From positions 274,156 to 338,155 of the forward strand of contig RPGP01000001.1 in assembly GCA_004193555.1 (NCBI GenBank): a stretch of 64,000 bases of DNA, in the 5' to 3' direction. The translations under genes and the position numbers were made by a program. Every line of letters starts with the position of its first letter. The first letter of the stretch is position 1. The stretch comes from Desulfobacteraceae bacterium Eth-SRB1. Its GTDB lineage: Bacteria; Desulfobacterota; Desulfobacteria; Desulfobacterales; ETH-SRB1. Below are positions 1,789 through 42,986 of the stretch, one piece after another. The notes beneath the pieces are model-generated. The model saw only the letters and a list, made by a program, of their open reading frames with translations, searched no databases and was not told the origin of the DNA.

Positions 1789-2286
1789 ATGAAAAGACTA
1801 CGTAAAATAATAGAAATTGATGAAGAATTATGCGACGGCTGCGGGCAGTGTGTGCCAGGCTGTGCAGAAGGATCACTGCAGATTATAGACGGCAAGGCAA
1901 AAATGGTGTCGGACAACCTGTGTGACGGCCTTGGCGCCTGCATCGGCGAATGTCCCACCGGCGCCCTCAGGATTGTCGAACGTGAAGCCGACGAGTTCGA
2001 TGAAGAAGCAGTCGAAAAATACCTTGCAGAAAAAGAATCAGAAAAACAAAAGGAGCCGGCAACATTAGCCTGCGGATGTCCTTCGACTAATATCCAGACA
2101 TTTGTACCGGTTTCTTCGTGTAAGGAAGCAAATATACCGGCTTCTTTTAAAGATGGAGAATCCGCCCTTTCCCACTGGCCGGTTCAAATCAGGCTGGTAC
2201 CTGCGACAGCTCCGTTTTTAAAAGGCGCTGATCTGAAATATTTATTTCCATGCTGTTATTATTTGGTGTTACGCAAGAGTTCGTAA
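1789..2286 (+). CDS. 4Fe-4S dicluster-domain protein, apparently 3'-truncated
   Basis: Cys motifs CDGCGQCVPGC and CDGLGACIGECP. The family-like sequence ...HWPVQIRLVPATAPFLKGADL stops at about 2235, followed by 16 unrelated codons and a stop. Confidence 0.65.
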   Translation: MKRLRKIIEIDEELCDGCGQCVPGCAEGSLQIIDGKAKMVSDNLCDGLGACIGECPTGALRIVEREADEFDEEAVEKYLAEKESEKQKEPATLACGCPSTNIQTFVPVSSCKEANIPASFKDGESALSHWPVQIRLVPATAPFLKGADLKYLFPCCYYLVLRKSS

Positions 2287-2294
2287 CACCAAAT
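2261..2294. repeat. perfect 13-bp stem hairpin (atttggtgttacg / cgtaacaccaaat, 8-nt loop)
   Basis: Read directly from the sequence. It covers the stop codon of the truncated 4Fe-4S ORF at the junction with the accessory DNA. Confidence 0.8.
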
Positions 2295-2480
2295 TATTCC
2301 ACTCCGGCAAGCGTTCAGGTTCAGATATTAGTTCGAGCTTTCTTATTTTGCATATACTATTTTCAGTAAGAAAAGAAAGAAAACAACAATATGCAGTGCT
2401 ATATCGTATAGGCCAAAATCTTAAATGCTATATATAGACATTTGTTCGGGTTTCTTTCTTAGACCTTTCTTAAAATTCAA

Positions 2481-4148
2481 CTATCCTTTCTTAATAAGTT
2501 CCCACCGAGGAGCTGTTCGACTTCCGACATTAATGATCAATCCGCTTTCCCTGAGTTTTGTTAGCAAGTTGCCGATTTTATTTTTTTTCTGCACCAGGGT
2601 AAATACGTCAGGCAATTTATTAAACAATAAAGTGTTAACATCTTCTCGTTTTACATGTCCAAACCTCTCTATCAGCCCTAATACCATGTTTTCATAATGT
2701 AAGTCATCTAATCCCCTGTTTTTTATGTATTGGGCTTTTTCGTCCGTAATTTCGGCGATATGCGACGCAACATAGACATTAGGTGCACGGCCTTCAATGA
2801 GTTTCTCCTTACGGAGCATTTTGAGTTCATCTCTGCTTATTTTTTTTCGTTTCTGCACTTTGTCAAGAGCTATTACATGGCGAAGGCCAAGATCCGCCTT
2901 CTCAATCAGGATTCGACTGTAGTTTTCATCAATTAACCGTCCCATAATTTCAAGAGTTACATGGTCTGGATCGCTTAAATCATAATCTGGTAAAGGGAAA
3001 TAACGTTTGCGCTGTTCAAGAAACATTTTTTTGATTCCGTAACCCATTGTATCAATCATATCAAGATTGACCATTGCCTGTGACAGAAAGGGGTTTCGGT
3101 AACGTTCCGGTGTCTTGTCTCTTAAAAGGTAATCTTCAAGCGTGCCTTCGAAAAATCCGCCCGAATTTTGCAGGATTAGACGATCCACTTTTTCGGTCAG
3201 GATAATACGGGCATTACGGCTATAATCCTGATGGGCTATGCAATTGTTCAAAGCCTCTAATACAATCCATGTGTCATATTTATCGAGTTCAAGAGGGATT
3301 AGAAGGTTAAATGGCTGGATTTTGAATTTGATATTTCGTATGCGGTTATAAACGGAATTTACATTCAATAGAAAAGGGGGACCGAAGTGTTCATAGGCCT
3401 GCTCTTCGGCTTCCAGCTTCCATGTAATTTGTGCTATGCTCGGCAACAAATGATAACTTGCTTCAGGTTTCCCAACAAGAATGATTGCAGCCCTGGTAAC
3501 CTGTCCGTTTACGGTAAGTTTAGCTCGATCAAGGAATGTTTCTTGATCCCATTCTTCTATTTCCCCGGCAAAAGACCGAGAACGGTTTTTCGATTTGAAT
3601 TTCTTCAGGGCGACAGCAAGGGCACCTTCATCTAAATCATTGATTGTTGCTTTCTGACAAATTTGGGCAGACCAGTCATAATTATTTACCTGATTTCTAA
3701 TTTGTTCGATTTCTTGTATGTTTAATGCACCGATAGATTCACCATCTCTGCCATAAAAATGCCCCTCTCACGCAACAGAGATGCCTTGCGGTGCTGCGGG
3801 AATTTGGAACATGATAACCCGCCCTTCAGGTAGTAAAAGCTCATGAATTTCAATAAACGTAATACGGTTGGTTGTTTTATTGGCGATTTCAGACTTCAGG
3901 CTATCCAGTTTGGATCTGTCTGAGCGATAATAAGTTCCAACAACTTTTCTATGCTCATCTTCCACACCAAAAACCAGCCAGCCACATGGTTTGCCTTTGA
4001 GATTTGCTTCGTTAGACAAAGCAGAAAAGTATCGTCCCAATTTACTGAAATCATAATTGTGCTTGGCTTTCTTAAACTCCACCCATTCTGTTTCAGATGG
4101 TAACGTGCGCAATCCGTTCAACAATCTACTCAGCTCTTCTTTTGTCAT
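2481..4148 (-). pseudogene. AlbA_2/Schlafen-like ATPase with C-terminal wHTH (COG2865-type), interrupted by one in-frame TGA
   Basis: ORFs 3768-4148 and 2481-3449 are in the same frame, and the stretch between them is open. That stretch reads EGHFYGRDGESIGALNIQEIEQIRNQVNNYDWSAQICQKATINDLDEGALAVALKKFK... The only stop is TGA at 3765-3767, in the context GISVA*EGHFYGRDGES, where this family has Trp. Confidence 0.7.
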
Positions 4149-4232
4149 GGCAAAATATTTACTATAAATTCATTTTATAATTTGTGATTAATCGAGTTCC
4201 TTATTCAGTTGAATTATTTGATAAACACAGTT

Positions 4233-4325
4233 TCACTGGTTTAACTCCTTGCCCATCCGATATTTGATGTCGTAGTGGATTATGAAGTCGAGTTCTTCTT
4301 CTGTGAAGCCGTAATGCTCAGCCTA
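4233..4325 (-). pseudogene. C-terminal fragment of a DNA methyltransferase/type IIG-like R-M protein
   Basis: The reverse strand reads AEHYGFTEEELDFIIHYDIKYRMGKELNQ*. This is a tail motif (YGLTeEE..FI..yDiKYRmG) that I recognise from the C-termini of adenine-specific R-M methyltransferases. No upstream body is present. Confidence 0.35.
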
Positions 4326-4361
4326 ATCCAGGGTGAAAAGGTTTTCATACAAAAGAATATT

Positions 4362-4575
4362 TTAATCCAGATCCGAAACTTTCACAACCTGCCTGTATTC
4401 AACACCTTCAAATTCATCAAAATACGCTTTGCCGCATTTGATTTTTCTTTTCTCGCTGTCTTTAAGTTCCTGATTCTCAGATTTGGTTTCCGCTACAAAA
4501 TAGACAGTTTTTTCATTTCTCTTTAATATCGCCCAGTCAGGATTATAGCTGCCAATAGGCGTGGGTATCTGAAAC
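4362..4575 (-). pseudogene. C-terminal PD-(D/E)xK nuclease fragment of a second restriction (res-type) gene
   Basis: LPGWFQIPTPIGSYNPDWAILKRNEKTVYFVAETKSEN is the catalytic nuclease tail (..PDW...ETK) of helicase-type restriction subunits. It lies immediately downstream of the intact res gene, and no helicase body is attached. Confidence 0.5.
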
Positions 4576-4599
4576 CAGCCGGGCAGCTTAATAAAACAT

Positions 4600-7290
4600 T
4601 TAATATTCCTCTGCATATTCATAAGCTTTAACCAAGTTATCAACACTCATATTTATCTTCACGGCATTGTGCGGTATTAAGACATATTTCCAGGGTTTGC
4701 CTCCGTTACGGGTCGTAAACTTTGTTGCATGGGCACAATACTGAACAGCTGCCCTTGCCTTTTCCTGAACATCTGATGAATCAACCTCTCTTTCCTCTTT
4801 TGTTTCAATCAGATAGATAGCGCTATCTGTTTCAACCACGAAATCCGGATGATACCGTCGCGAATTATGGTCCCAATAAATATGGAATTGTTTTTCGGCG
4901 GGACGAAGCCACTTTAATACCGACTTCTTGTCATCCTCAAGTATCCAGGCAAAATCTTTCTCTGTTTTGGAACCGAATTTATAAAGATTATGGCAGGCCT
5001 TTTTAAAACCGCTGAATACTTTAGCCGGTATGGATTTGGTTGGTGTGATTGTTTCCGTATAATGATAGATATTGTCCTCTGTATATTTTGAGAAATTATG
5101 CTCTTCTATTTTTGTAAAAGGGCGTACTGTGGTTTTTACAAATCCCGGTGTTTCGTAATAGAAATGGTCCATCATCTGTACATAGATGTAATCTCCAATT
5201 TCTTTTTTTAAACATTGAATAACATTGGCAACATCTTCTTCAGCAAGATATGTCCTGAATTTTTCAACGACCTGACCCGCTAATTTGAATAGCAGATCAG
5301 ACTGATTATCGTAGTCTATCTCAGGAAAGTTGATAAGTTCGTTGACTATGATGTTTTCAAGACTGTCTGGAACAATCCCGCCCTTACCTATAACGATATC
5401 CGTGCTGTTTTCCTGTTCACGAAGTTTTTTTATCAAAATCTCTTCAGATACAGGCTGGTAGTTAAGATTTTTGGTTTCAAGATCAAAATCCTTGAATCCC
5501 GACAGTACATCATCGCTCTGCTGGATTATGATTCTTGGAATTTCGATAATGTTGCCAGCAAAATCACTTACAACAGAATCATATGCCTTCTCGACTTCCG
5601 CTATTGTCTCTTTGGCAAATAAAGACTGCTGAGGATCGCTGTATATCTTGCGCTTTATTTTCTCGACAGCAATTTCCTTGATTTCCGGTCTTGTCAGTTC
5701 ATTTACATTCTTTGCATCTTTGTTCAGCTCAGGAAGGGTATCAAGGATTGTTTTTCTCAGCTCCAGATTGATACATGCCTTTCTTTTTTCATCCGGTTCT
5801 ATAATATCTTCAATGCGTGCTCTTGCTTCCTCCAATTTTTCTTCGATACTTGAAAGCGAGGTAATTACTTCCTTTTTCTGGATAAACTCATCCGGATCTA
5901 ACTCGATGATATTCTCCTTTTTTATAATTGATCCGGGCTTATTCGCTTCATCAATGATTTCCTGAAATTTATCGTGCGCGACAATAGTCAGTTTATCGAC
6001 CTTGTCGTTTCCGGTTCTCTTGTTATAAGGCAGGCGCAATCCTCTTCCGATAGTCTGTTCCCTGAGTGTCATTGATGCCGCAGTCCGCAGGGGAATAATA
6101 GTGTAAAGATTGGTTACATCCCAGCCTTCCTTGAGCATATTAACGTGGATTACGATCTCTATTTTATTGTCGGGACTCTCTAATGAAACTAATTGAGCAA
6201 TATTTTCTTCCTTTTCAGACCCTCTTTGAGCAGAGTGGATTTCCATGACATTGTCGGCATAATTTCCTTCAAAAAAAGCCTTTGAAATAATCAGTTCCTT
6301 AAGCTTGCTTGCATGGCTGGTATCTTTGGCAACGACAAGCACAAAAGGTTTGACCTGCTGCGTCTTGTTATCCCGCGCATATATATCCAGGGCCACTTTG
6401 GTGTCCTCGTGGATTCGTATACCGTCTTCCAGTTTAATTCTGTCAAGCTCTTCATCGCTGTAATGCAAAGGATCAAAGTCTTTGCGTGTAGCCACGGCAG
6501 GCTCTTTGACAAATCCGTCCGGAATCGCCTTTGCAAGCGAATATTCATACACAACGTTTTTGAATTTTATGGTGTGTTGCCCCCGTTCCACCTGTGGAGT
6601 AGCTGTCAGTTCTAATCCGAGGACTGGATTTAATTCGTTGATAACTTCCATTCCCCTGTCCGCTCGATAGTGATGGGATTCATCCATAAGCAATACAAGG
6701 TCGTTTAGATTGGAGAGATAATTGAAATAAGAATCTCCCAAATATTCCGAAAGCCGCTTGATCCGAGGCATACTCCCACCCCTTGTCTCGGCGTTTATCT
6801 TTGATATATTGAAGACATTGATATGGACTTCTGAATCAAACATGGTTCTCTGTGAAGTATACTGGTAATTATCGCCGGTAATTATGCGAGGGCGTTTTGT
6901 TGCAAATTCGCCGATACCCTGAAATACATACTTGGGACTGTTCGGCAACGATAAATCATCAATAAGCTTGTTATAAATAGTAAGGTTGGGCGCAAGGACA
7001 AAAAAGTTCTTGATTCCCTTATGCAGATAGAGATAGGCAATAAACGCACCCATGAGACGGGTCTTGCCGACACCGGTTGCCAGGGCAAAACAGACAGATG
7101 GAAAATTTCTTTCAAAATCCGTGCATGTTGGATACGCATTCTTTACCTTGTCAAGCTCGGTTTGCAGATCGACCTCTTTCTGCAGAGTCAATTTGCCGAC
7201 CAGATCGGCAAGTATTTCCAGACTTTCTGTTTGAGGCGCCCTCAGGCTCAAGCGGTTTTTGATGAAAGTCGCGATACGATCCATTGTCAT
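4600..7290 (-). CDS. res: Type III restriction enzyme, Res subunit (SF2 helicase plus C-terminal nuclease)
   Basis: 896 aa. N-terminus NRLSLRAPQTESLEIL, Walker A ATGVGKTRLMG, DEAH-like LLMDESHHY, helicase motif VI QTIGRGLRL, and C-terminal YHPDFVVE...LIETKEE nuclease motif. It is placed directly after mod. Confidence 0.9.
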   Translation of the reverse strand: MTMDRIATFIKNRLSLRAPQTESLEILADLVGKLTLQKEVDLQTELDKVKNAYPTCTDFERNFPSVCFALATGVGKTRLMGAFIAYLYLHKGIKNFFVLAPNLTIYNKLIDDLSLPNSPKYVFQGIGEFATKRPRIITGDNYQYTSQRTMFDSEVHINVFNISKINAETRGGSMPRIKRLSEYLGDSYFNYLSNLNDLVLLMDESHHYRADRGMEVINELNPVLGLELTATPQVERGQHTIKFKNVVYEYSLAKAIPDGFVKEPAVATRKDFDPLHYSDEELDRIKLEDGIRIHEDTKVALDIYARDNKTQQVKPFVLVVAKDTSHASKLKELIISKAFFEGNYADNVMEIHSAQRGSEKEENIAQLVSLESPDNKIEIVIHVNMLKEGWDVTNLYTIIPLRTAASMTLREQTIGRGLRLPYNKRTGNDKVDKLTIVAHDKFQEIIDEANKPGSIIKKENIIELDPDEFIQKKEVITSLSSIEEKLEEARARIEDIIEPDEKRKACINLELRKTILDTLPELNKDAKNVNELTRPEIKEIAVEKIKRKIYSDPQQSLFAKETIAEVEKAYDSVVSDFAGNIIEIPRIIIQQSDDVLSGFKDFDLETKNLNYQPVSEEILIKKLREQENSTDIVIGKGGIVPDSLENIIVNELINFPEIDYDNQSDLLFKLAGQVVEKFRTYLAEEDVANVIQCLKKEIGDYIYVQMMDHFYYETPGFVKTTVRPFTKIEEHNFSKYTEDNIYHYTETITPTKSIPAKVFSGFKKACHNLYKFGSKTEKDFAWILEDDKKSVLKWLRPAEKQFHIYWDHNSRRYHPDFVVETDSAIYLIETKEEREVDSSDVQEKARAAVQYCAHATKFTTRNGGKPWKYVLIPHNAVKINMSVDNLVKAYEYAEEY

Positions 7291-7317
7291 GATCTCCCTG
7301 TTTTATTACGACAAGCG

Positions 7318-8967
7318 CTAATCAAAAAGTTTTCCCTGTTTCATAGCGTCCTTTTTCTTTTTTCCGGTTGTTTCTTTTCCGGGTCCAGGCGGCACGAAAT
7401 CAGGCGCATCAGGATCAACAGGCATGGTTACGATATTAAAACTATAATCATCCCTTCCGAACTCACACCTGCCTAACAACATTCCAGGTATTTTTTTGAC
7501 GGTGATTCCAGAATATTGGTTTTCGCAGGCCTTCTGAAACGATTTGCAACAGATGAGCAGGCTTTCTCCGGGTTTCATGTCCTCCCTGATTTTGTCCAGG
7601 GTCTCGACGGTGACAAACTGCGTAGTGGTAAAGATAAAGTCTTTTTCAGTAGATTGTCCCTGTTTCCAGTAAATCTCTTCATCGGGATTATATTTGAATC
7701 CCTCGTGCTTTGCCATGGCAGCCGCCAGCATGTCTGCATTGTATCGTTCGTCAATTACCCAGTTGCCGTGCTTATCTTCCTTGAGCAGACTGGGGGCAAG
7801 ATAGTAATATCTGAATCCTCCCCCGCCTTTCCAGTTTACTGATTTTGAAATCCCACCCTGATCCGTTCCGTCAGCCACCTTTTGCAAGCGCGGAAGGCAG
7901 TGCGTGTGGCAATGTTCACCCAGTTCGACCCCGATCCATTTGCGGCCCATTTTATGGGCTACGGCGGCGGTAGTACCGGATCCGAGGAAGGAATCGAGGA
8001 TGAGATCGCCTTCATTTGAAGCCAGTGTAAGAATACGCTGGATTAATCGTTCTGGTTTTGGGGTTGTGAATACTTCGACATCATTAATATCCTTTGTTTC
8101 TTTCTTTGCCTCTTGGTTGTCACCTACTTCATTACGCAACCAAATAGTTTTACTTACCGAACCATCTTTTACTTCTGACAAAAATTTCTTTACTGATGGT
8201 ACATTATTACCTGTTTTCCCAAACCATATCCTGTTATCAATAATCAGTTTTTCAAATTTTTCCTTCGATGTAACCCAACATCGACTTCCTGGAGGATTAA
8301 CAATTCGTCCTGATGGCAAGGTAATCGGATAATCGCTGTTAGCATTATAAGTTTTAACTGAAAAATCGGCAGGTTTCCACGGACCTCTTGGATCATTATC
8401 TGGGTTCTTATATCTTTTGTTCATTTCTTTAGTTCGAGGCAATAAATTAGGACGCCATATTTTTTTTGATTTTGCATAAACAATAATATGGTCGTGACTA
8501 TCAGAAAGCCACTTTGCATCATTCTGGGGTGAGTACTTCTTTTCCCAAACAACATTCGCCACAAAATTTCTGCGCCCGAATATTTCATCACAAAGCACTT
8601 TCAAATAATGTGATTCATCATCATCAATCGAAATCCACAGGCTCCCATTATCGGAAAGGAGCGCCCTCAGCAGTTCAAGGTGAGGCTTCATAAGGCTTAG
8701 CCAAAGCGAATGTTCCAGCCCGTCGTCATAATGCTCAAACGCATTTCCAGTATTATACGGCGGATCGATGGAAATGCAGTTGATCTTCCCCGCAAAATCC
8801 TGTTCCAGCGCTTTCAGCGCGAGGAGGTTATCGCCGAATACCAGCATATTTTCGCTGTTCCTATCACCGTAAGACTTTTCAGGGTCTTCTATCAATATTC
8901 TCGGCTCTATCTTCGGCAGGTTATCCTTCCCGATCCACGTAAGTTCCAGTTTTTGTCGGTTTTTCAT
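7318..8967 (-). CDS. mod: Type III R-M Mod subunit, beta-class N6-adenine (or N4-cytosine) DNA methyltransferase
   Basis: Motif IV SIDPPYNTGN precedes motif I LDSFLGSGTTAAVAHKMGRKWIGVEL. N-terminus KLELTWIGKDN. The start is set at ATG 8965-8967 (GGAGA 5 nt upstream) rather than the TTG at 8991 used by the ORF track. Confidence 0.9.
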   Translation of the reverse strand: MKNRQKLELTWIGKDNLPKIEPRILIEDPEKSYGDRNSENMLVFGDNLLALKALEQDFAGKINCISIDPPYNTGNAFEHYDDGLEHSLWLSLMKPHLELLRALLSDNGSLWISIDDDESHYLKVLCDEIFGRRNFVANVVWEKKYSPQNDAKWLSDSHDHIIVYAKSKKIWRPNLLPRTKEMNKRYKNPDNDPRGPWKPADFSVKTYNANSDYPITLPSGRIVNPPGSRCWVTSKEKFEKLIIDNRIWFGKTGNNVPSVKKFLSEVKDGSVSKTIWLRNEVGDNQEAKKETKDINDVEVFTTPKPERLIQRILTLASNEGDLILDSFLGSGTTAAVAHKMGRKWIGVELGEHCHTHCLPRLQKVADGTDQGGISKSVNWKGGGGFRYYYLAPSLLKEDKHGNWVIDERYNADMLAAAMAKHEGFKYNPDEEIYWKQGQSTEKDFIFTTTQFVTVETLDKIREDMKPGESLLICCKSFQKACENQYSGITVKKIPGMLLGRCEFGRDDYSFNIVTMPVDPDAPDFVPPGPGKETTGKKKKDAMKQGKLFD

Positions 8968-8980
8968 GCCGATCTCCATG

Positions 8981-9304
8981 TGCTGAGTCAAGTACCTCCG
9001 ACATAGCCGGAGGCTTGATGGTTACGCCCTCAAAGGGCGGCTGGGTACCCAGGTACTCCAGTTATTGGTTCTAAAATCCGAATCCATTTCTGAAACACAA
9101 TACTCGGATTCTCAAAATACTGATGGGTTGCTATTGTCGAAATTTAAACGTGTCCCGAATACCTTTCTGATACCCGTGATTACTTTTGTTATTTGGTCTA
9201 TTAATTATTTACCAGAGATTGAGTTGTCTACCGCCTGATTATTCCAGGAACTGTCAAACTCTGGGAGTCCCCCGGCATAGCCGAGGGTTTACCATGGTTA
9301 ATTA
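8981..9304 (+). repeat. copy A of a 0.32-kb non-coding element with matching sub-terminal hairpins
   Basis: Near-identical to 14433-14781 apart from a 25-nt indel and a few substitutions. Left hairpin cctccg-acatagc-cggagg; right hairpin cccccgg-catag-ccgaggg. Each hairpin is followed by ..tggtta. Confidence 0.85.
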
Positions 9305-9948
9305 TACGACCTGAAGGAGGTCCTGGAAACACCATTTCTAATTCTTGTGAAATGAACGGATAGTTTGAAAAGGAATAAATAGAATCCGTAATCGCTCAAT
9401 GTAAAAATTCTCTGGCGTATTACAGATTTTTCCTCAAGCAGATTGGCTGGACAGTTATTTGTACGGTCAAAAAATACGATAGAATCATTTTCGAGTTGAC
9501 CACCTTTGGGAAGGTAAAATATATGGCTGATATGTTGTTTCCGTATGTCGGCAATGTGCGAATTTATTGATTCAATTGATCTCTGGTCGGTATCAACATG
9601 ATTTTTAATAAGACTTTGTTCGTATTTCCCAAGGTTGATTATCGGAGCATAAACCATCCGTAACGGCATAAGACGTTTATTTGCCTGATCTATATCACAA
9701 GTATTTGATAAGATCATGCCTGGCACTTGGTCAACATTAGTGTCTGGGAAATGGATATACAGCAAATTTTGAATTCCATCACCTTGAAAAAGATTTGTAT
9801 GGTTGTGCAGATAAGTTGTATATAATCTTTGATCAATATTATGTGGGAATGCTTTTAATTCGTTAAATAATTCTTGTTCTGCGGTAGAGGATAGATGCTG
9901 CGGAAGATACTTTTTTATTTCTTCGAATGGAATCATATCAAATCCCAA
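9298..9948 (-). CDS. hypothetical protein (216 aa), third gene of the AT-rich cassette
   Basis: ORF overlapping the upstream ORF by 16 nt. No family recognised. Its stop codon (9298-9300) lies inside the terminal ttaatta of repeat copy A. Confidence 0.5.
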   Translation of the reverse strand: MGFDMIPFEEIKKYLPQHLSSTAEQELFNELKAFPHNIDQRLYTTYLHNHTNLFQGDGIQNLLYIHFPDTNVDQVPGMILSNTCDIDQANKRLMPLRMVYAPIINLGKYEQSLIKNHVDTDQRSIESINSHIADIRKQHISHIFYLPKGGQLENDSIVFFDRTNNCPANLLEEKSVIRQRIFTLSDYGFYLFLFKLSVHFTRIRNGVSRTSFRSYN

Positions 9949-10232
9949 AAGTTTTCATCGACAGTTTTAGAAAATTCAGGGTCTAAATCTTTGATGTTGT
10001 CTAATATGGACGAAGCGAATTTATGTATTATATCAATTTGTTCAAGCATTACAGACTGATCTGGATTTATTATTTGATAATAATCATATTTTATTTCTTT
10101 TGGCGCACTAATTTGTATATTTGTATTTACAGTATCCAAGTTGATTGTTGTTGGAGCGCCGAGATATGAATAGAATAAAACACCAGCGGTAACGGTGCTT
10201 CCGACAACATTTCTAAATTGTGGCACTAACAT
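9933..10232 (-). CDS. hypothetical protein (99 aa)
   Basis: Tightly packed between the two flanking ORFs, with a 1-nt gap to the upstream gene. No family recognised. Confidence 0.4.
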   Translation of the reverse strand: MLVPQFRNVVGSTVTAGVLFYSYLGAPTTINLDTVNTNIQISAPKEIKYDYYQIINPDQSVMLEQIDIIHKFASSILDNIKDLDPEFSKTVDENFWDLI

Positions 10233-10233
10233 C

Positions 10234-10956
10234 TTATTTTTCCTCGTAAACTGGATTTAATGATGACAAAAATTCGTTTCCTAATAAATTAAAAAATAGT
10301 GTTTTTTCAGCATGGTGCGCGCATTCTATCGCGTCTTGAAAGTTGCCAAACTTATCAATTTCCACATTAGTATCTATATCGATAATAGAACCTTTTATAA
10401 TCTGGTTTTCAATAGCTACTTCGGCATGATTTATTAGCTTGAGATTACTTGCACCATATTCGTATGGAAATTCTGAAGAAAAATTTATTTTATTATCATT
10501 AATCTGCTCGTCATTAAGTAGTATTTTTAAGTTTGATTTGTTGAAGACATTAATGTCTGGAAATACATTAATGTATCTAAGCGCAGTGCGATAATGTTTA
10601 TTGATTAATTTTAACTCTGATAACTTATTATAAGTATCATATATTTTTTTAGAAAATTTATCCCAGCCGCAATAATCCTTCAAATTTGCCAACGAGAAAA
10701 CTTTAGGGCCAATTTGAATAATAAAATTATCTTTTTTAATTTTGTAATAAGGCGTAAATTTGAGATTAGTGTCTTGGTTTCTGATTGCAGCAGGTAATTG
10801 TAAAACTGGCAATTGTTCTACTTGTTGAAATTCATCCTTAAACTGGTTATAAACGATTCCAAAAATTGCATCGTCAGGCAAAGATGCCTCGAATCGAACT
10901 TCGAAAATGACCTCAATAATTGGACATGGATCTATTGAAACTGGCAATTTATTCAT
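10234..10956 (-). CDS. TIGR04255-family protein (function unknown)
   Basis: The N-terminal signature PIIEVIFEVRFEASLP and the 240-aa length fit my memory of the TIGR04255 family. Not verified by search. Confidence 0.55.
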   Translation of the reverse strand: MNKLPVSIDPCPIIEVIFEVRFEASLPDDAIFGIVYNQFKDEFQQVEQLPVLQLPAAIRNQDTNLKFTPYYKIKKDNFIIQIGPKVFSLANLKDYCGWDKFSKKIYDTYNKLSELKLINKHYRTALRYINVFPDINVFNKSNLKILLNDEQINDNKINFSSEFPYEYGASNLKLINHAEVAIENQIIKGSIIDIDTNVEIDKFGNFQDAIECAHHAEKTLFFNLLGNEFLSSLNPVYEEK

Positions 10957-11547
10957 TATATAATCCCCAAATGTCGTATATTTTATTCATATTACGTAAT
11001 TACTGTTAGACAATTTTACCTTGCTTTGCAATAATAAATTTTATTATGATTTTTTAAATACCCCATCCGCTTGCGGCGGGGAGCTTCATTCTGCTTTATA
11101 TCAAGCGATTTGCCGTCCATCATTTTTTCCCCTTATTATTTAAAACCAGCTATTCGATCTTTATTCTATTATAGCCTAACCTACAAGATATTTTCAGGCA
11201 GGTATAATCTCAACTGTCTTATCGCCTTCTTTCAGGATTTTTTCTTCACATAAAGTGATAATTTTTCCGGTTCCAAGGCCAGGTTCTTTCATTGCACAAA
11301 CCAGCAACATAACTTACCGGTTTGCTGACGAATTAGCAATATCAGTTTCCGATATTAATTTCCGATAAGTTGTTCTGTCAAAAAAGCGGAATCTTTTTAC
11401 CAGTGTTCCTGGTATAAGTTCAGGCCACGAGAGGTCGTGCGAGTTTGTATTCATTTTGTTTATTTTTCATTTGTTTGAAATGTCGCTTTATTTCTGATAC
11501 TAATTAAAAATAGGTAGTTACTACTGCACAGAAAAATAAAAATCAAT

Positions 11548-12339
11548 ATGACACCTGAAAAGCTGAAAAAAAAGCTCGACACCCTTTATGATAAATATAA
11601 CCGGCGCAGGTATGTTCATCCTGACCCCCTCGAATTTCTGTATTCATACAAAGATATCAGAGACCGTGAAATAGCCGGGCTCATTGCTTCTTCACTTGCG
11701 TACGGCAGGGTTGCACAAATTTTAAAGAGCGTTGCATATGTGTTAGACATTATGAATCCGTCCCCTTACCTGTTTTTAAAAAATTCAACCTATACATCGA
11801 TTAACAGGACTTTTGCAGGTTTTACACACAGGTTTGCCAATGGAAGTGAGCTTGCTGCTTTACTTTTTGAAATAAAAAACGTGATTAACCGATTTGGCTC
11901 CCTCCATGAATGTTTTTTAGACGGTTTTTCGGAAGATGATGAGAACATTATCCCTGCCATGACTTTTTTTGCAATGCAACTTACTGCTGGAAGAAAGAAA
12001 CCGGGACATCTTATCGCCCTTCCTGAAAAAGGTAGCGCATGCAAGAGAATGAATCTTTTTTTAAGGTGGATGGTAAGAAAAGACAGGGTTGATCCGGGAG
12101 GATGGGCCGGCATACCGTTATCCAGTCTCATAATCCCCATTGATATACACATGCACAGAATAAGCCTTGCTTTGAATGTCACAAAAAGAAAACAGGCAAA
12201 TATGCGTACTGCTCTTGAGATAACATCCGGTTTTACAAAAATAGTCCCTGAAGATCCGGTTAAATACGATTTTGTGCTAACCCGCTTTGGAATAAGAAAT
12301 GATATGGATATTGATGATTTTATTGATCAGGTTAAATAA
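11548..12339 (+). CDS. TIGR02757 / DUF2400-family protein
   Basis: 263 aa with the motifs DPLEFLY, IAGLIASSLAYGRVAQILKS and IPIDIHMHRIS, which are typical of the DUF2400 family. Confidence 0.65.
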   Translation: MTPEKLKKKLDTLYDKYNRRRYVHPDPLEFLYSYKDIRDREIAGLIASSLAYGRVAQILKSVAYVLDIMNPSPYLFLKNSTYTSINRTFAGFTHRFANGSELAALLFEIKNVINRFGSLHECFLDGFSEDDENIIPAMTFFAMQLTAGRKKPGHLIALPEKGSACKRMNLFLRWMVRKDRVDPGGWAGIPLSSLIIPIDIHMHRISLALNVTKRKQANMRTALEITSGFTKIVPEDPVKYDFVLTRFGIRNDMDIDDFIDQVK

Positions 12340-12423
12340 ATATGTTATTTTTTAAAAAAAGCATCTCACGCAAAGGCGCAAAGTTTTCAGGAAAATTAAA
12401 GACGCCCACAATTTCAATGAAAT

Positions 12424-13785
12424 TTGTCTATATTCACTATGAGTAAACTATTGCTTAAAAAAATAATATCCAATCAAAAAAACCTGGAACGTATCCTTGA
12501 CAGTATAAAGGATGGTATAATTGCGCATGATTTGAATAGGCGCATTTTTTATTTTAACAGGGAAGCAGAGAAAATAACCGGGTACAGCAGAAAAGAAATT
12601 CTTGGAAAGGATTGCCATAAAGCGTTTGGCGAACCTTTCTGCGGGGAGCGCTGCTCATTTTGCGGCGATAAACCGGTATTGAGTGATAGATCCGAATATT
12701 TGATGAATATAATAACAAAAGATGGCGAGTCCAGACAGGTTGAAATGTCTGTTGTTATGATGAAAGATGAAAAAAATCATGATTTCGGAGTTCTTGCCTG
12801 TTTTAGGGACATTACCGATTTGTTATACCTTAAGATCAAAGCCGGAGAGCTTGCCGGATTTTCCAACATCGTCGGCAGGAGCAGTAAAATGCTCATGCTG
12901 TTCAGACAAATAAAAGATGTGGCCGGATACGATTACCCTGTGCATATTTCCGGAGAAACCGGAACCGGTAAAGAATTGGTTGCAAAAGCAATTCATAATG
13001 AAAGCCGGCGGGGGGGCGCTCCGTTTGTGCCTATTAACTGTGGCGCTCTTCCCGGAGGTCTTATTGAAAGCGAACTCTTCGGTCATGTTAAGGGAGCTTT
13101 TTCAGGCGCAATCCGGGATAAAAAAGGAAGGTTTGAGCTTGCAGACAGAGGCAGTATTTTACTTGATGAAATTACGGAACTTTCAAAGCCGCTGCAGGTA
13201 AAGCTTCTGAGATTTTTGCAGGATGGAACTTTTGAAAAAGTCGGCGGCGAAAAAACCGTATCGGTTAATGTTCGTGTGATAAGCGCAACCAACAGGGACC
13301 TTAAAAAGGAGGTGCAGAAGAACAATTTCCGTAAAGATCTCTATTACAGACTCAATGTTATTCCGATACATATTCCCCCACTCCGTGAAAGAAAAACCGA
13401 CATTCCTCTTCTCATCGATTATTTCCTGAGCCAGGCGGAAAATGAAGATAAACAATCAATAAAAATATCGAATGAAGCCCTTTCTGTAATGATGGACTAT
13501 GACTGGCCCGGCAATGTTCGGGAACTTCAGAATGCTGTCTCATTTTCGATTGTAAAATGCCGCAAAGGTATTATTAAACCAGATGATCTGCCCATGGAAC
13601 TTAAAGCTTTTAAAAGCAGCATTCACACACGCGGCCCATCCGTGAAGCTGGATATTGATGCAGTCAATAAAGCCCTTTTAAAAACAGGCGGTAATAAAGC
13701 AAAAGCAGCCAGGGTCCTCGGGGTCGGACGGGCGACTCTTTACAGGTTTTTAGGGAATTATCCGGCAATACTCAAATCTAATTAA
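12424..13785 (+). CDS. sigma-54-dependent transcriptional activator (PAS, AAA+ and Fis-type HTH domains)
   Basis: PAS-like N-terminus, Walker A GETGTGKE, ESELFGHVKGAFSGA (GAFTGA-type loop), and C-terminal GGNKAKAARVLGVGRATLYRFL. Confidence 0.9.
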   Translation: MSIFTMSKLLLKKIISNQKNLERILDSIKDGIIAHDLNRRIFYFNREAEKITGYSRKEILGKDCHKAFGEPFCGERCSFCGDKPVLSDRSEYLMNIITKDGESRQVEMSVVMMKDEKNHDFGVLACFRDITDLLYLKIKAGELAGFSNIVGRSSKMLMLFRQIKDVAGYDYPVHISGETGTGKELVAKAIHNESRRGGAPFVPINCGALPGGLIESELFGHVKGAFSGAIRDKKGRFELADRGSILLDEITELSKPLQVKLLRFLQDGTFEKVGGEKTVSVNVRVISATNRDLKKEVQKNNFRKDLYYRLNVIPIHIPPLRERKTDIPLLIDYFLSQAENEDKQSIKISNEALSVMMDYDWPGNVRELQNAVSFSIVKCRKGIIKPDDLPMELKAFKSSIHTRGPSVKLDIDAVNKALLKTGGNKAKAARVLGVGRATLYRFLGNYPAILKSN

Positions 13786-14248
13786 TGACCAGCACCGAAA
13801 TATTCTTAACCAGGTTAAACACTTTTTGTGAAATACTGCCAAGAATAAACTCCTTAATTCCAGACTGCCCTCTTCTTCCCATGATAATGGTGTGATAACC
13901 GGATTGCGTTTCTTTAACGATATCCCTTGCAACTCCCTTTTTTTTGCGTTTTGCCTTTATGGTTACATTCTTTTTTTTAAACCCTGCATCTATTAAGATT
14001 TGCCGTGCTTTTTGAAGTGCGTTGTCAACCAGGTCCTTTTTTTTCTCTTCAAGTGTACAAAAGGACTTTTGTTGAGATTTAAAATATGGGGTTAATTCCG
14101 GGCTATTCATATCACACAAGGTGGCGGTGTCCTGGACTATATTTAACAGTGTAATTTTATTGTCCGTGGCAAAATTTTTTGCCACATATTCCACTGCCCG
14201 CATAGCGTTTTCAGAGTCATCAAATGCTACAAGTATTTTTTTATCCAT
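13778..14248 (-). CDS. universal stress protein (UspA family)
   Basis: 156 aa with MDKKILVAFDDSENAMRAVEY and a C-terminal ATP-binding motif IIMGRRGQSGIKEFILGSISQKV. Confidence 0.85.
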   Translation of the reverse strand: MDKKILVAFDDSENAMRAVEYVAKNFATDNKITLLNIVQDTATLCDMNSPELTPYFKSQQKSFCTLEEKKKDLVDNALQKARQILIDAGFKKKNVTIKAKRKKKGVARDIVKETQSGYHTIIMGRRGQSGIKEFILGSISQKVFNLVKNISVLVIN

Positions 14249-14432
14249 GAGTTATCTCCTCCTTATTATTATATAATTTAATCCACAGATTACGCAGATT
14301 CCACAAATTTTTGCAAGCTATTGATTAAGTTCCCCGATGCTTGCGTTGAAACCTTTGCAAAACACTCCCCTTTTGCTTCCCGCTCGTAGCTAAATCAGGC
14401 TCAAACTTTAATCAGCCTTGAGAGACTAATAC

Positions 14433-14781
14433 TGCTGCCGTCAAGTACCTTCGGCATAGCCGGAGGCTTGATGGTTACGCCCTCAAAGGGCGGCTTAAGA
14501 CCATGAGCCGCTCAGGGCGGGGTACCCACGTACTCCAGTTATTGGTTCTAAAATCCGAATCCATTTCTGAAACACAATACTCGGATTCTCAAAATACTGA
14601 TGGGTTGCTATTGTCGAAATTTAAACGTGTCCCGAATACCTTTCTGATACCCGTGATTACTTTTGTTATTTGGTCTATTAATTATTTACCAGAGATTGAG
14701 TTGTCTACCGCCTGATTATTCCAGGAACTGTCAAACTCTGGGAGTCCCCCGGCATAGCCGGGGGTTTACCATGGTTAATTA
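14433..14781 (+). repeat. copy B of the 0.32-kb hairpin-ended non-coding element
   Basis: Aligns end to end with 8981-9304. It carries an extra 25 nt (ttaagaccatgagccgctcagggcg region). Its hairpins are ccttcgg-catag-ccggagg and cccccgg-catag-ccggggg. Confidence 0.85.
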
Positions 14782-15102
14782 AACATTTTTCAAAGGTCTC
14801 ATACTGTTATGTATCTTCGCCACATAAGCCGAACTGTTGAGGTCGAGTCACAACATCTTGACAATCTCCGACTCTTTTTTTTATATAGCTTAAATATATG
14901 TTATGCAATATAAATGACAAAAGAATGAAAAATTCCTTTATGAAGAACCGGACAAACCATGGTGCAGGGGTACCGTGGACAGAGTCCGATATCGAGTTAA
15001 GAGAAATGATTTGACTTGCATATAACAATTTCATATTTTAACAGAAAATAAGTGGTTACAAATTTAACGAACGCCTAAAAAGGGAAAGACAAAAAATATT
15101 AT

Positions 15103-16581: not shown

Positions 16582-17340
16582 ATGCCTCAACAAAACAGTC
16601 AAAAGATTGTTGGTATTATTGTAATCTGTGCGGTTATTATCGCTGCGGCTGCAACAGGTTTATGGTTGTGGACAAAGGAGGGGAAAGATGCTGTTTCAAA
16701 AACAATGCCTCCAAAAGCTCAAATGCCTGTTAAATCCCAGTCTGTCATAGATTACAATAAGCTGGAAAAAGATAAGAATCTTCAGGCTCTTATTCAGAAG
16801 CGTAAAACAGACTTCGGGGTTGAAAAAGGGGTTGACATTATAGTCAAATCCGATGAATCCGTCAAAATTGGCGATTCAACAATCCCTATGCAGGAGATTC
16901 TGGATAAGATACGTCTTAAATCAGGCGATATTATTGAACAAGATATAAGTTCCGGAAAAAAGGAGCCTGAAAACAGCGTAGAATCATTTGGAATATATGT
17001 AGTCCAACCCGGAGACAACATCTGGAATATACATTTTCAATTTTTAACGGAATATTTTGACCACAAAGGCATTAGACTTTCTCCTGTTTCCGACGAACCT
17101 GACAGACTGGGCTTTAGTTCCGGAGTGGGCAAACTTTTAAAATTTTCAGAACACACTGTTTATATTTACAACATCAAAGAAAGAAAACTGGATGTTGACC
17201 TTAACCTGATTGTTCCGTTAAGTAAAATTGTTGTTTACCGGATGGACCGGATTTTTACACTTCTGGATCAAATCGATTATAAACAGATAAACCGGATCCG
17301 GTTTGACGGTGAAACGCTGTGGATACCTGCGGAACAGTGA
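16582..17340 (+). CDS. membrane-anchored hypothetical protein with a LysM-like segment
   Basis: N-terminal TM helix (IVGIIVICAVIIAAAATGLWLW) and YVVQPGDNIWNI, which resembles a LysM core. Confidence 0.45.
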   Translation: MPQQNSQKIVGIIVICAVIIAAAATGLWLWTKEGKDAVSKTMPPKAQMPVKSQSVIDYNKLEKDKNLQALIQKRKTDFGVEKGVDIIVKSDESVKIGDSTIPMQEILDKIRLKSGDIIEQDISSGKKEPENSVESFGIYVVQPGDNIWNIHFQFLTEYFDHKGIRLSPVSDEPDRLGFSSGVGKLLKFSEHTVYIYNIKERKLDVDLNLIVPLSKIVVYRMDRIFTLLDQIDYKQINRIRFDGETLWIPAEQ

Positions 17341-40196: not shown

Positions 40197-42986
40197 ATGG
40201 CATTGCATCCTGATTTTCCCAATTCTCCCCATACCGTCCTCAACCCGGATATCCGCTGGTTTCCGGCAGACGAAGCCCTCCGTGAGTCAAGCTATGAAAA
40301 GCTGCTGCCGCCTCTCGTGCATGAACTGCGTAAAAAGGTGAAGGCGTGGCGGGACAATGGCTATGAAGGGGCAACAGACACCAGTATAGCCTTGCTGGAC
40401 TGGTGGTTTAATCAAGAACATCTGCTGCCGAAATCGGGCCTGTCTGCGTGCGGACACGCACAGGCAGGCGGAACCATGGCAAAATTTCAATATTACTTTG
40501 CCCAGCAAGAGGCGGTTGAAAGCATCATTTATCTTTACGATGTGGTTAAGGTAAAGGACAAATATGATCTGCTCCGTTTTGATTCATCCGGCGCTGTTTC
40601 AGCCGGAATGTTTGATGAATCGTGGCTCCGTTTTGTAATTAAGATGGCGACCGGCGCCGGCAAAACCAAGCTGATGAGTCTAATGCTGGCGTGGTGTTAT
40701 TTTCACAAACTTTATGAGCCGGATTCGGACCTGGCGCGTAATTTTCTGCTGATTACGCCTAATATCATTGTATTGGATAGAATCCGTAGCGACTTTGACG
40801 GGTTGCGGATATTCTTTGAAGACCCGGTGCTGCCGCCCAATGGATATTCAGGCGCTTTTGAAGGGCGCAACTGGCGTGATGATTTTCAACTGACCCTGCA
40901 TATCCAGGATGAAGTTAATGTTACCCGCAAGACCGGCAATATATTTTTAACCAATATTCACCGTGTTTATTCCGGCAATAATATAGAGCCGTCTGCTGAT
41001 GATGAAGATACAATGGATTATTTTCTTGGCAGGCGTCCCACAGGAGCTACCACGGATTCCAAAATCGATCTTGGAGATATTGTCCGCGACATTGATGAAC
41101 TGGTGGTGCTGAATGACGAGGCGCATCATATTCATGATCCCCAAATGGCATGGTTCAAGTCGATTGAGGATATTCATAATCGGCTGAAACACAAGGACAA
41201 GTTTCTCTCCCTGCAAGTGGACATGACTGCTACACCCAAACACAACAATGGCGCAATCTTTGTGCAGACGGTTTCAGATTATCCTTTGGTAGAGGCTATT
41301 TCGCAGAATGTGGTTAAACATCCGGTGTTGCCAGATTCCGCCAGTCGTGCCAAGCTTGGTGAACGGCAAAGTTCAAAATATACGGAAAAATATGCCGATT
41401 ACCTGAATTTAGGCATAGAGGAGTGGCGTAAAGCATACAAAGAACATGAAAAGATGGACAAAAAAGCCATTCTCTTTGTGATGACTGACGATACCAGAAA
41501 CTGTGATGATGTGGCTGAATATCTGAAAAGGACCTATCCTGATTTTAAAGATGCGGTGCTGGTGATCCATACCAAAAACAACGGAGAGATCAGCGAGGCC
41601 GCAAGCGGCAAGAAAAAAGAGGAGCTTGAAAAGCTGCGCAAACAATCAAATGAAATTGATAGCTGGAATAGTCCTTTTAAGGCTATTGTCTCGGTGATGA
41701 TGCTCAAAGAGGGTTGGGATGTGAAAAACGTGACCACTATCGTGGGGCTGCGGCCCTATTCTGCCAAAAGTAATATTTTGCCGGAACAGACATTGGGCCG
41801 GGGCTTGCGAAAAATGTATCCAGGCTACAATGCTGAGGAATACGTCAGTGTTGTGGGAACAGATGCTTTTATGGATTTTGTGGAGTCCATCCAGTCCGAA
41901 GGAGTTGAGCTTGAGCACAAGGCAATGGGTGAAGGCACCAAACCAAAAACGCCGATTATCGTTGAAATTGATAATGAAAACATAAAAAAGGATATCGACA
42001 ATCTTGATATCGAAATTCCGGTATTAACCCCAAGGGTATATCGGGAGTACAAGAATCTCAGCGGTCTGGACACAGGGCATTTCGGCCATAAAAAAGTAGA
42101 ATACAAGATCTTCAGTCTCGAAGAACAGCGCGAGATTGTATTTAAGGACATAACTACCGGCGAGATTAATCATACAACCATTCTGGATTCAGGCGCGGTT
42201 ACCGACTACCGTTCTGTGGTGGGGTATTTCACCCAGGTTATCATGAAAGATTTAAGATTGGTCAGCGATTATGATGTGCTGTACGGGAAAGTAAAATATT
42301 TTATTCAGGATGAATTGTTTGACCTGTCTGCGTGCGGAGACGCACAGGCAGGAAAACCGGTTGACCTTGACAGCCTGAACACCTTGCGAAATCTGTCCGA
42401 ACTTGAAGCAGGCAAAACTCTGGTGGAAACATTTAAAAAGCAGATTAACGCCTTAACTGTGCAGGACAAAGGAGACGCAAAAATCCGTGATACGATTAAG
42501 TTGAGGAAAACACGGCCATTTGTCGTTAAAGAGCAGGGATATATCATACCAAAGAAAAGTATTTTTAATAAAATAATTGGCGACAGTAGCCTGGAATTAC
42601 AGTTTGCTGCATTTCTTGAAGACTGCGACGATATTATTTCCTATGTGAAAAATTATATGGCCGTTCATTTCAAGATTGATTACGTCAATGCAAATGGTGA
42701 AATATCCAACTATTACCCGGATTTTATCGTCAAGAAATCAGAGAAAGAAGTCTTTATTGTTGAAACCAAAGGGCTTGAAGACCTTGACGTGCCTTTAAAA
42801 ATGGAAAGGTTAAAACAGTGGTGTGTTGATATCAACAAAGCGCAATCAGAAATCAAGTACGATTATATTTTTGTGGATGAGGAAAGTTTTGATAGGTTCA
42901 AACCAAAAAGTTTTGAGGAATTAATTAGAAGTTTTACAAAATATAGGATTGGCATGGCGGCAGCGTCTTCATCCTTGATAAAGTAG
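40197..42986 (+). CDS. res: Type III-like restriction subunit (SF2 helicase plus C-terminal PD-(D/E)xK nuclease)
   Basis: 929 aa. Walker A ATGAGKTKLMS, DEAH LNDEAHHI, motif VI QTLGRGLRK, and C-terminal YYPDFIVKK...FIVETKG. Confidence 0.88.
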   Translation: MALHPDFPNSPHTVLNPDIRWFPADEALRESSYEKLLPPLVHELRKKVKAWRDNGYEGATDTSIALLDWWFNQEHLLPKSGLSACGHAQAGGTMAKFQYYFAQQEAVESIIYLYDVVKVKDKYDLLRFDSSGAVSAGMFDESWLRFVIKMATGAGKTKLMSLMLAWCYFHKLYEPDSDLARNFLLITPNIIVLDRIRSDFDGLRIFFEDPVLPPNGYSGAFEGRNWRDDFQLTLHIQDEVNVTRKTGNIFLTNIHRVYSGNNIEPSADDEDTMDYFLGRRPTGATTDSKIDLGDIVRDIDELVVLNDEAHHIHDPQMAWFKSIEDIHNRLKHKDKFLSLQVDMTATPKHNNGAIFVQTVSDYPLVEAISQNVVKHPVLPDSASRAKLGERQSSKYTEKYADYLNLGIEEWRKAYKEHEKMDKKAILFVMTDDTRNCDDVAEYLKRTYPDFKDAVLVIHTKNNGEISEAASGKKKEELEKLRKQSNEIDSWNSPFKAIVSVMMLKEGWDVKNVTTIVGLRPYSAKSNILPEQTLGRGLRKMYPGYNAEEYVSVVGTDAFMDFVESIQSEGVELEHKAMGEGTKPKTPIIVEIDNENIKKDIDNLDIEIPVLTPRVYREYKNLSGLDTGHFGHKKVEYKIFSLEEQREIVFKDITTGEINHTTILDSGAVTDYRSVVGYFTQVIMKDLRLVSDYDVLYGKVKYFIQDELFDLSACGDAQAGKPVDLDSLNTLRNLSELEAGKTLVETFKKQINALTVQDKGDAKIRDTIKLRKTRPFVVKEQGYIIPKKSIFNKIIGDSSLELQFAAFLEDCDDIISYVKNYMAVHFKIDYVNANGEISNYYPDFIVKKSEKEVFIVETKGLEDLDVPLKMERLKQWCVDINKAQSEIKYDYIFVDEESFDRFKPKSFEELIRSFTKYRIGMAAASSSLIK
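40439..40468 (+). repeat. 30-bp GC-rich palindromic element, in-frame inside res (copy 1)
   Basis: cctgtctgcgtgcggacacgcacaggcagg encodes LSACGHAQAG. Stem tgcgtg/cacgca plus outer cctgtc/gcagg pairing. Confidence 0.85.
42323..42352 (+). repeat. 30-bp GC-rich palindromic element, in-frame inside res (copy 2)
   Basis: cctgtctgcgtgcggagacgcacaggcagg is identical to copy 1 at 29 of 30 positions and encodes LSACGDAQAG. Confidence 0.85.

Follow-up and report, generated by a model that had tools for sequence, protein, structure and literature searches.

Two 0.3-kb direct repeats were analyzed in a stretch of 64,000 nucleotides from contig RPGP01000001.1 of Desulfobacteraceae bacterium Eth-SRB1, which is referred to below as the window. 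Each copy is identified, with a probability of about 0.9, as a palindrome-associated transposable element (PATE), a non-autonomous and gene-less derivative of an insertion sequence (IS) of the IS200 group within the IS200/IS605 family. The assignment is carried by the homology of both ends to the ends of elements that bear tnpA, by the lack of any tnpA remnant in the repeat, and by the insertion of the second copy into another element. An initial annotation of this DNA had put forward a PATE-like derivative of the IS200/IS605 family as one of two readings, and this reading is the one upheld here. The repeat is a known kind of element, real but ordinary.

PATEs are derivatives of IS200/IS605 elements that retain the ends only and are mobilized in trans (PMC7290912; PMC10055086; PMC3119063). 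The features of the two copies are as follows.

8987–9299, minus strand: PATE copy A, 313 nt, with ends homologous to the left (LE) and right (RE) ends of full-length IS200-type elements and with a 24-nt deletion
9299 (left end) and 8987 (right end), minus strand: termini of copy A in the tnpA orientation
14440–14776, minus strand: PATE copy B, 337 nt, the copy nearer to the ancestral form and carrying the extra segment 14496–14519
9061–9235 in copy A and 14538–14712 in copy B, no strand assigned: AT-rich internal cargo of ~175 nt with 36% GC, identical between the copies

Results

Two Copies of the Repeat

The direct repeat was located by a repeat search and by blastn of the 64-kb window and spans 8987–9307 and 14440–14784. 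When copy B was compared with the window using blastn, the sole match was copy A, at 91.6% identity over 345 columns with the indel counted. A global alignment of the element proper provided 98.7% identity, with four substitutions (8998C/14451T, 9001A/14454G, 9052G/14529C, and 9284A/14761G) and one indel. Three of the four substitutions are located in the terminal stems. The two nearly identical direct repeats reported in the initial annotation were thus recovered. The single indel between them was recovered as well, and its size in the global alignment is 24 nt, not 25 nt.

No third copy was detected within the window by the repeat search, by blastn, or by a covariance model of the left end, and the copy-number check that had been proposed therefore returns, for this part of the genome, two copies in 64 kb. 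The pentanucleotide tgctg had been described as preceding both copies. It is present, with its register shifted by one base: tgctg at 8981–8985 is separated from copy A by 1 nt, and tgctg at 14433–14437 is separated from copy B by 2 nt. This sequence is placed outside of the element because it is absent from the relatives described below.

Homology of the Ends to tnpA-Bearing Elements

Copy B was used as the query for a blastn search of a plasmid collection. No full-length match was obtained, and two sets of partial matches were found instead. The right end of copy B (query positions 10–86, the first ~80 nt) matches about 20 enterobacterial plasmids at 78% identity. The left end (query positions 285–350, the last ~60 nt) matches plasmids from Leptolyngbya, Solidesulfovibrio, Rhodanobacter, Azotobacter, Acidovorax, and Iodobacter at 80–90% identity. 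In the Leptolyngbya (L007) and Iodobacter (L010) plasmids, the match to the left end is positioned 50–60 nt upstream of a tnpA that is annotated as IS200/IS605 and lies on the opposite strand. On the far side of tnpA in these two plasmids there are hairpins that resemble the terminal right-end hairpin of copy B and the GCC..TTTGAG..GGC hairpin that neighbors it. Truncated tnpA fragments, identified using tblastn, adjoin the matches in an Enterobacter plasmid (L006) and a Solidesulfovibrio plasmid (L008), in the orientation expected.

A search with the full Leptolyngbya element yielded three more full-length relatives that carry tnpA only, from Acidovorax (L034), Azotobacter (L035), and Pseudodesulfovibrio (L036). 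The ends of these elements are the same as those of L007 and L010. All five full-length relatives are about 640–700 bp in length and contain tnpA without tnpB. Their TnpA proteins match the Pfam family Y1_Tnp with E values of 1e-36 to 1e-41 and the NCBIfam equivalog transpos_IS200 with 152 bits against a cut-off of 55. The score for the RAYT model is 47.7 bits, which is below the cut-off of 80. No TnpB domain is found in the 411-aa gene beside the Leptolyngbya element.

Since the plasmid matches flank tnpA, the IS200-type left end is assigned to positions 9299 and 14776 and the right end to positions 8987 and 14440, on the minus strand. The initial annotation had suggested that tnpA genes with the same end hairpins be sought elsewhere, and these are now represented by the five full-length elements and the two plasmid elements with a truncated tnpA.

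The IS200-group IS of Leptolyngbya boryana pLBX, Iodobacter fluviatilis pl1, and Pseudodesulfovibrio profundus paDPRO have left and right ends homologous to those of the window element, and their sub-terminal hairpins are the same and are found on the corresponding strand. These IS and the window element alike have no terminal inverted repeats, no target duplication, and an AT-rich motif that abuts the left end. Unlike the IS, the window element contains neither tnpA nor any other gene, and the ~435 nt of tnpA together with the 5′ leader are replaced by ~175 nt of unrelated AT-rich DNA. The CTATG loop variant and the TAACCAT that precedes both hairpins are specific to the lineage of the window element.

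Additional sequence collections were scanned with the hairpin pattern. Among the GTDB representative genomes there were five matches, all attributed to chance, with no hairpin or extended similarity. Eight matches were obtained from the JGI metagenomes; seven are chance occurrences within coding sequence and one is real. No match was found in the viral contigs or in the phage records. Searching the window and some 150 kb of contigs from relatives of the host with a covariance model of the left end gave no additional copies. From the few matches in the genome, metagenome, and viral scans it follows that this hairpin variant is rare in public data. The one real match, at positions 4051–4102 of metagenomic contig Ga0307929_1006434 (L019), is a solo left-end fragment of ~60 nt with 92% identity, the same CATAG loop, and the same TAATT junction. 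It sits between two convergent genes, and neither a tnpA nor a right end is present on the 5.4-kb contig.

Hairpins at Both Ends

The structural features of the ends, read on the minus strand, are listed below.

9269–9287, minus strand: LE hairpin of copy A, CCCTCGGC-TAT-GCCGGGGG
14746–14764, minus strand: LE hairpin of copy B, CCCCCGGC-TAT-GCCGGGGG
8995–9013, minus strand: RE terminal hairpin of copy A, CCTCCGGC-TAT-GTCGGAGG
14448–14466, minus strand: RE terminal hairpin of copy B, CCTCCGGC-TAT-GCCGAAGG
9025–9039 in copy A and 14478–14492 in copy B, minus strand: inner RE hairpin CGCCC-TTTGA-GGGCG, which aligns with the GCCGC-TTTGAG-GCGGC hairpins of the relatives
14496–14519, minus strand: 24-nt segment present in copy B only, part of a third RE hairpin that is also found in the full-length relatives

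Both sub-terminal hairpins of each copy have the same CATAG loop on the same (plus) strand and are followed by ATGGTTA. The earlier description of same-strand hairpins with a common loop and a trailing tggtta therefore holds for both copies. A degenerate version of the hairpin pattern has exactly four matches in the window and none in 100 shuffles. On the minus strand, the left end reads TAATT/AACCATGGTAAA, with the slash marking the junction, followed by the hairpin CCCCCGGC-TAT-GCCGGGGG and then by ACTC..GTTTGAC. The right end consists of two or three short GC-rich hairpins, the last of which is CCTCCGGC-TAT-GCCGGAGG, followed by TACTTGAC.

Ten left ends were aligned (alignment A2: copies A and B, the metagenomic fragment L019, and seven plasmid elements), as were seven right ends (alignment A3). 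The left ends in A2 share the pattern GGTAA-CCCCCGGC-NNN-GCCGGGGG-ACTC...GTTTGAC. The eight pairs of the left-end stem form in 100% of the cells across the 10 sequences, compared with 42–56% for slid partner columns, and in two sequences an A-T pair replaces G-C at one position. The terminal stem of the right end is paired in 98% of the cells across seven sequences, with one compensatory change from U-A to C-G. Slid pairing controls across both alignments gave 42–58%. The covariation check that had been called for thus returned terminal stems that pair in 98–100% of cells with one compensatory change each, and this amounts to modest evidence of covariation, given by few sequences with mostly invariant pairs. 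The positional homology to the ends of tnpA-bearing elements is the stronger argument.

The stems of the family consensus are perfect. Relative to this consensus, an A.C mismatch has arisen in both terminal stems of copy A, and one G.T wobble in copy B. The proposal that the substitutions between the copies keep or improve pairing fails when the changes are polarized by the consensus. The extra 24 nt of copy B align in A3 with a hairpin located just after the tnpA stop codon of the relatives, and the right-end matches in the enterobacterial plasmids extend across the segment. Copy B therefore keeps the ancestral right end and copy A has undergone a deletion. With a mismatch in each of its terminal stems, copy A is therefore the more decayed copy.

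Junctions and Insertion of Copy B

The following features are found at the junctions. The abbreviation MITE denotes a miniature inverted-repeat transposable element.

9300–9304, minus strand: TAATT abutting the LE of copy A, a putative target or transposon-adjacent motif
14777–14781, minus strand: TAATT abutting the LE of copy B, belonging to the interrupted MITE
14347–14439, plus strand: left portion of an unrelated MITE that has terminal inverted repeats and is interrupted by copy B; this portion aligns with the intact copies at 51523–51666 and at 13126–13300 of locus L022
14777–14801, plus strand: right terminus of the interrupted MITE (…AACATTTTTCAAAGGTCTC), identical to that of the intact copy at 24 of 25 positions

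The 5′ flank of the left end on the minus strand is ...GTATAATT/AACC for copy A, ...GTTTAATT/AACC for copy B, and ...GCATAATT/AACC for the L019 fragment. The pentanucleotide TAATT is directly 5′ of the left end in these three different contexts, and similar TAAT motifs are found in the relatives, the sample being small. Beyond the right end, the sequence diverges immediately after TACTTGAC. No target-site duplication is present at either copy: the 5′ flank ends in TAATT, and the 3′ flanks are TCAGCAC for copy A and GGCAGCA for copy B. There are also no terminal inverted repeats, the left-end terminus AACCATGGTAAAC being unrelated to the reverse-complemented right-end terminus GTCAAGTACCTCC.

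The MITE interrupted by copy B is unrelated to the PATE. It is 144–175 nt long and has the terminal inverted repeats GAGACCTTTGCAAAA ... TTTTTCAAAGGTCTC. An intact 144-nt copy is present in the window at 51523–51666. In L022, a locus from a relative of the host, a MITE of ~175 nt (13126–13300) is located upstream of the orthologous usp gene and no PATE is present. Because parts of the MITE flank copy B and an intact MITE exists elsewhere, copy B was inserted into a pre-existing MITE. The ...TTAATT of this MITE apparently served as the target for copy B. As a separate observation, two copies of the MITE in L022 (10927–11069 and 13126–13300) flank the block that contains the sigma-54 activator and usp.

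At the other copy, the stop codon TAA of open reading frame (ORF) 9298–9948 (minus strand, 9300–9298) straddles the junction between flank and element, with its T derived from the TAATT motif. The contribution of copy A to this stop codon, which had been pointed out before, is correct in this junction-straddling form.

Interior of the Element

A Y1 HUH transposase (Pfam PF01797) is not encoded in the element, which is thus not an autonomous IS200, and for this reason the element is filed as a derivative (PATE) rather than as an IS. A tblastn search of the window with two TnpA proteins returned E values above 0.2 throughout and no match within the element. The internal ORFs of 26–70 aa are not conserved between the copies, in agreement with the initial annotation, and have no Pfam family match. 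ORF 14503–14715 had been noted to start at an ATG that exists in the extra stretch of copy B only; the ATG is indeed within these 24 nt, and the ORF has no protein family match.

Copy A is located directly upstream of the genes for a Type III restriction-modification (R-M) system.

7318–8967 (8979), minus strand: Type III mod, with ATG 8967 as the likely start (the methionine aligned with position 1 of the PADLOC MTase_III profile)
4600–7290, minus strand: Type III res, to the left of copy A

The likely start codon of mod at 8967 is 20 nt downstream of the right end of copy A. Since copy A places 313 nt between mod-res and the upstream DNA, these genes must be transcribed either through the element or from within it. 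A promoter-like site, TTTCCA-17-TATAAT, is found on the minus strand at 9329–9301, recognized solely by its match to the consensus, and its –10 hexamer overlaps with the TAATT junction of copy A. A promoter at 9301–9329 would direct transcription into the PATE towards mod.

The 175-nt cargo could be a functional module, either an outward promoter or a small RNA, such that copy A supplies or gates the transcription of mod-res and excision by TnpA, or recombination of the two copies, operates as an R-M switch. The only hint for this kind of control is the consensus promoter-like match that overlaps the copy A junction, and we regard this role for the cargo as unlikely.

A still less likely role is that of a guide RNA (omega-RNA or reRNA) for a TnpB or IscB encoded elsewhere, with the cargo and the right end together forming a functional RNA gene. 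The initial annotation had raised a relic of such an RNA. PATEs often encode omega-RNAs that are acted upon in trans (PMC10055086). The cargo is perfectly conserved between the two copies, and the folding z-scores range from –2.1 to –4.9. However, the copies, 98.7% identical overall, share a recent origin, which accounts for the unchanged cargo, and an omega-RNA is not expected because all five of the full-length relatives lack tnpB. The ORFs of the element provide no tnpB-like remnant, and neither a 3′ remnant of tnpB nor an omega-RNA scaffold was found next to the right end using Rfam, protein families, or the relatives.

The Rfam check that had been proposed for a structured RNA gave no family at the gathering score anywhere in the window. 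A permissive scan at E ≤ 10 returned noise only; the lone, far-sub-threshold match is STnc490 on the left-end hairpin of copy B, with E = 3.5 and 13.8 bits, where the gathering score is 56. STnc490, which we take to be derived from the 5′ end of Salmonella IS200, is mentioned as a curiosity and is not used as evidence. Nothing in these scans points to an independent RNA, either as an omega-RNA relic or as the unclassified structured RNA of the initial annotation.

Genomic Setting and the 5.1-kb Interval

Three minus-strand ORFs (9298–10956), for which Pfam and PADLOC gave no family, lie between the copies, followed by genes for a DUF2400 protein, a PAS/sigma-54 activator, and Usp. Copy B is positioned 190 nt before usp, and the gene for RNase G is to the right of copy B. 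The DUF2400 protein is 100% identical to that of Desulfobacteraceae bacterium Eth-SRB1 with the locus tag SRB1_00280, on a contig of 1.25 Mb, while no record was found for the exact sequences of Usp and RNase G. The genes for DUF2400, the sigma-54 activator, and Usp are syntenic with the relative L022/L023 (ENA assemblies) at 89–94% DNA identity up to position 14279. To the right, the window is syntenic with a second relative, L011, from 14997 onward, some 200 nt past the MITE.

Compared with L022, the segment from about 2236 to 11541 is a 9.3-kb insertion between a 4Fe-4S (AF_0155-like) gene and DUF2400, and this island truncates the Fer4 gene to 165 aa versus 247 aa. The island contains a split AlbA_2/HATPase_c_4 gene, res, mod, copy A, and a three-gene module. 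Copy A is in the middle of the island, and copy B is 2.9 kb outside of it. Both copies are situated in intergenic or junction DNA between modules, as is often the case for small transposons, and represent separate insertions that delimit no mobile segment.

The copies could instead be the ends of a composite transposon, or the product of a segmental duplication or recombination, with the 5.1-kb interior as the unit. They are in direct orientation 5.1 kb apart, both are near synteny breakpoints, and TnpA could in principle pair the left end of copy B with the right end of copy A. The interior genes DUF2400, the sigma-54 activator, and usp, however, occupy the same order and position as in L022, so they did not move as a unit. 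The island begins well to the left of copy A and stops short of copy B, its edges matching neither copy. The homology between the copies stops exactly at the IS ends and the flanks are unrelated, which fits two insertions and not a larger duplication. A composite transposon or island boundary was rejected on the basis of the synteny with L022 and L011, and this explanation is more improbable again than that of a guide RNA. The idea of the initial annotation that the copies bracket a meaningful 5.1-kb segment is abandoned with it. Recombination between the 230-bp identical stretches could, in principle, delete the interior.

Least probable is an independent structured RNA or shared 5′ leader that regulates the minus-strand mod-res and usp genes: both copies are upstream of minus-strand genes (copy A ~20 nt before mod and copy B before usp) and form stable hairpins, yet the conserved parts are exactly two IS200-type transposon ends, the region upstream of the orthologous usp in L022/L023 lacks the element, copy B is inside another MITE, there is no Rfam match, and mod and usp are functionally unrelated. 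Such a structured-RNA or leader function is for the most part refuted by the homology to the IS ends.

A further idea, that removal of copy A would restore an ATGA stop/start overlap between ORF 9298–9948 and mod, was rejected. The homologues of the ORF product end in ...SRTMH followed by the stop codon (208 aa), the homology of the module DNA stops at 9320, and in L031 and L033 the module is present without mod. Homology to the three-gene modules in L031, L032, and L033 ends 18 nt before the TAATT motif.

Neighboring Observations

The three-gene module at 9320–10956 (minus strand) encodes a protein of the TIGR04255 family (about 240 aa) and two smaller proteins of about 100 and about 208 aa. 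The 208-aa protein has invariant SNTCD and FYLPK motifs and 695 homologues. For the 100-aa and 208-aa proteins, no family match was found in Pfam, PADLOC, NCBIfam, or the PDB. The AlphaFold model of the 208-aa protein has a mean pLDDT of 38.6, which is too poor for a fold search. The module is also found in L031 (315–1961), L033 (5845–7497), L038 (6959–8639), and L041 (3169–4810). Its settings are recurrently those of mobile DNA or defense islands: it is adjacent to Type III R-M genes in the window and elsewhere to a TIR-nSTAND NTPase, a dCTP deaminase/dUTPase, integrases, a serine recombinase, and toxin-antitoxin genes. These three genes are a candidate for an uncharacterized defense or mobile-element module.

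Within the same island, the split AlbA_2 (3768–4148) and HATPase_c_4 (2481–3449) gene looks like a pseudogene. A 252-aa ORF at 16582–17340 (plus strand) is located between rng and the adenylosuccinate-lyase gene and has no Pfam or PADLOC match. The closest relative, L011, lacks this ORF and has 79 nt between rng and the adenylosuccinate-lyase gene. A repeat of ~30 nt is found at 40438–40469 and 42323–42352, about 1.9 kb apart, and also on an unrelated metagenomic contig (L033, 7877–7908) at 93–97% identity, and possibly represents a further family of short repeats. Genes for tRNA or tmRNA are absent from the window. The cumulative GC skew tracks gene orientation and is uninformative on the direction of replication.

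Discussion

In the IS200/IS605 family, TnpA dimers bind both hairpins on single-stranded DNA and cleave on the 5′ side of the left end, adjacent to a target of four or five nucleotides, and on the 3′ side of the right end. The excised single-stranded circle reinserts 3′ of the same motif without duplication (PMC7290912; PMC10055086). By analogy to this established mechanism, a Y1 (HUH) TnpA dimer supplied in trans would bind both hairpins of the window element on single-stranded DNA. Cleavage by the enzyme would take place after TAATT, on the 5′ side of the left end, and on the 3′ side of the right end. A single-stranded circle would be excised and then reinserted 3′ of another TAATT.

As judged from the nucleotide sequence, the window element has every cis feature that was examined, namely, hairpin ends, the absence of terminal inverted repeats, the absence of a target duplication, and an abutting motif. 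Copy B looks intact. With one mismatch per terminal stem and one right-end hairpin lost, copy A is probably less mobile than copy B or immobile.

Several points weigh against the assignment of the repeats as PATEs. We infer the cleavage positions from three junctions. The interrupted MITE is short by about 40 nt next to copy B when compared with the intact copies, and the reconstruction of the empty site is imperfect; for copy A, an empty site was not found among the relatives compared. For the cargo, no homologue was found in the plasmid or phage collections. A cognate tnpA was not found in the 64-kb window using tblastn, and two copies and the one solo fragment are all that was seen across the window and the collections scanned.

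The window element resembles two other classes of small non-coding repeats. REP and REPIN sequences are palindromes of 20–40 nt, often arranged as inverted pairs, that are handled by RAYT, a Y1 HUH enzyme related to the TnpA of IS200. The likeness is in the short palindromic non-coding repeats and the Y1 HUH enzyme. In contrast to REP and REPIN, the window unit is 313–337 nt long with distinct left and right ends, and the transposases of its relatives belong to the IS200 equivalog and score below the RAYT cut-off. Classical MITEs have terminal inverted repeats and originate from DDE transposons. They are likewise small, non-autonomous, non-coding, and repeated, as illustrated by the copy at 51523–51666, whereas the window element has same-strand hairpins and no inverted termini.

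Among the closest parallels are the PATEs of Haloquadratum walsbyi, Halanaerobium hydrogeniformans, and Geobacillus stearothermophilus, which are likewise short and gene-less and contain only end hairpins of the IS200/IS605 type (PMC3119063, PMC7290912, PMC10055086). The PATEs of these three hosts are presumed to be mobilized in trans by TnpA, as is presumed for the window element. The PATE-like elements of H. hydrogeniformans and G. stearothermophilus have ends of the IS605 type (tnpA and tnpB) and may carry a 3′ fragment of tnpB or an omega-RNA. The window element differs from these in being derived from a tnpA-only IS200 lineage, in having no such RNA, and in its host, a sulfate reducer of the Desulfobacterales.

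The value of the finding is mainly in annotation. Two unannotated 0.3-kb repeats are transposon relics and not RNA genes, the spurious ORF call at 14503–14715 is removed, and the odd C-terminus and stop codon of ORF 9298–9948 are accounted for together with the 313-nt gap before mod. Existing knowledge of the mechanism of the family is not changed. The catalogue of PATEs gains a tnpA-less derivative of a tnpA-only IS200 lineage from a host of the Desulfobacterales, and its TAATT-adjacent left end could be used for finding the partner transposase.

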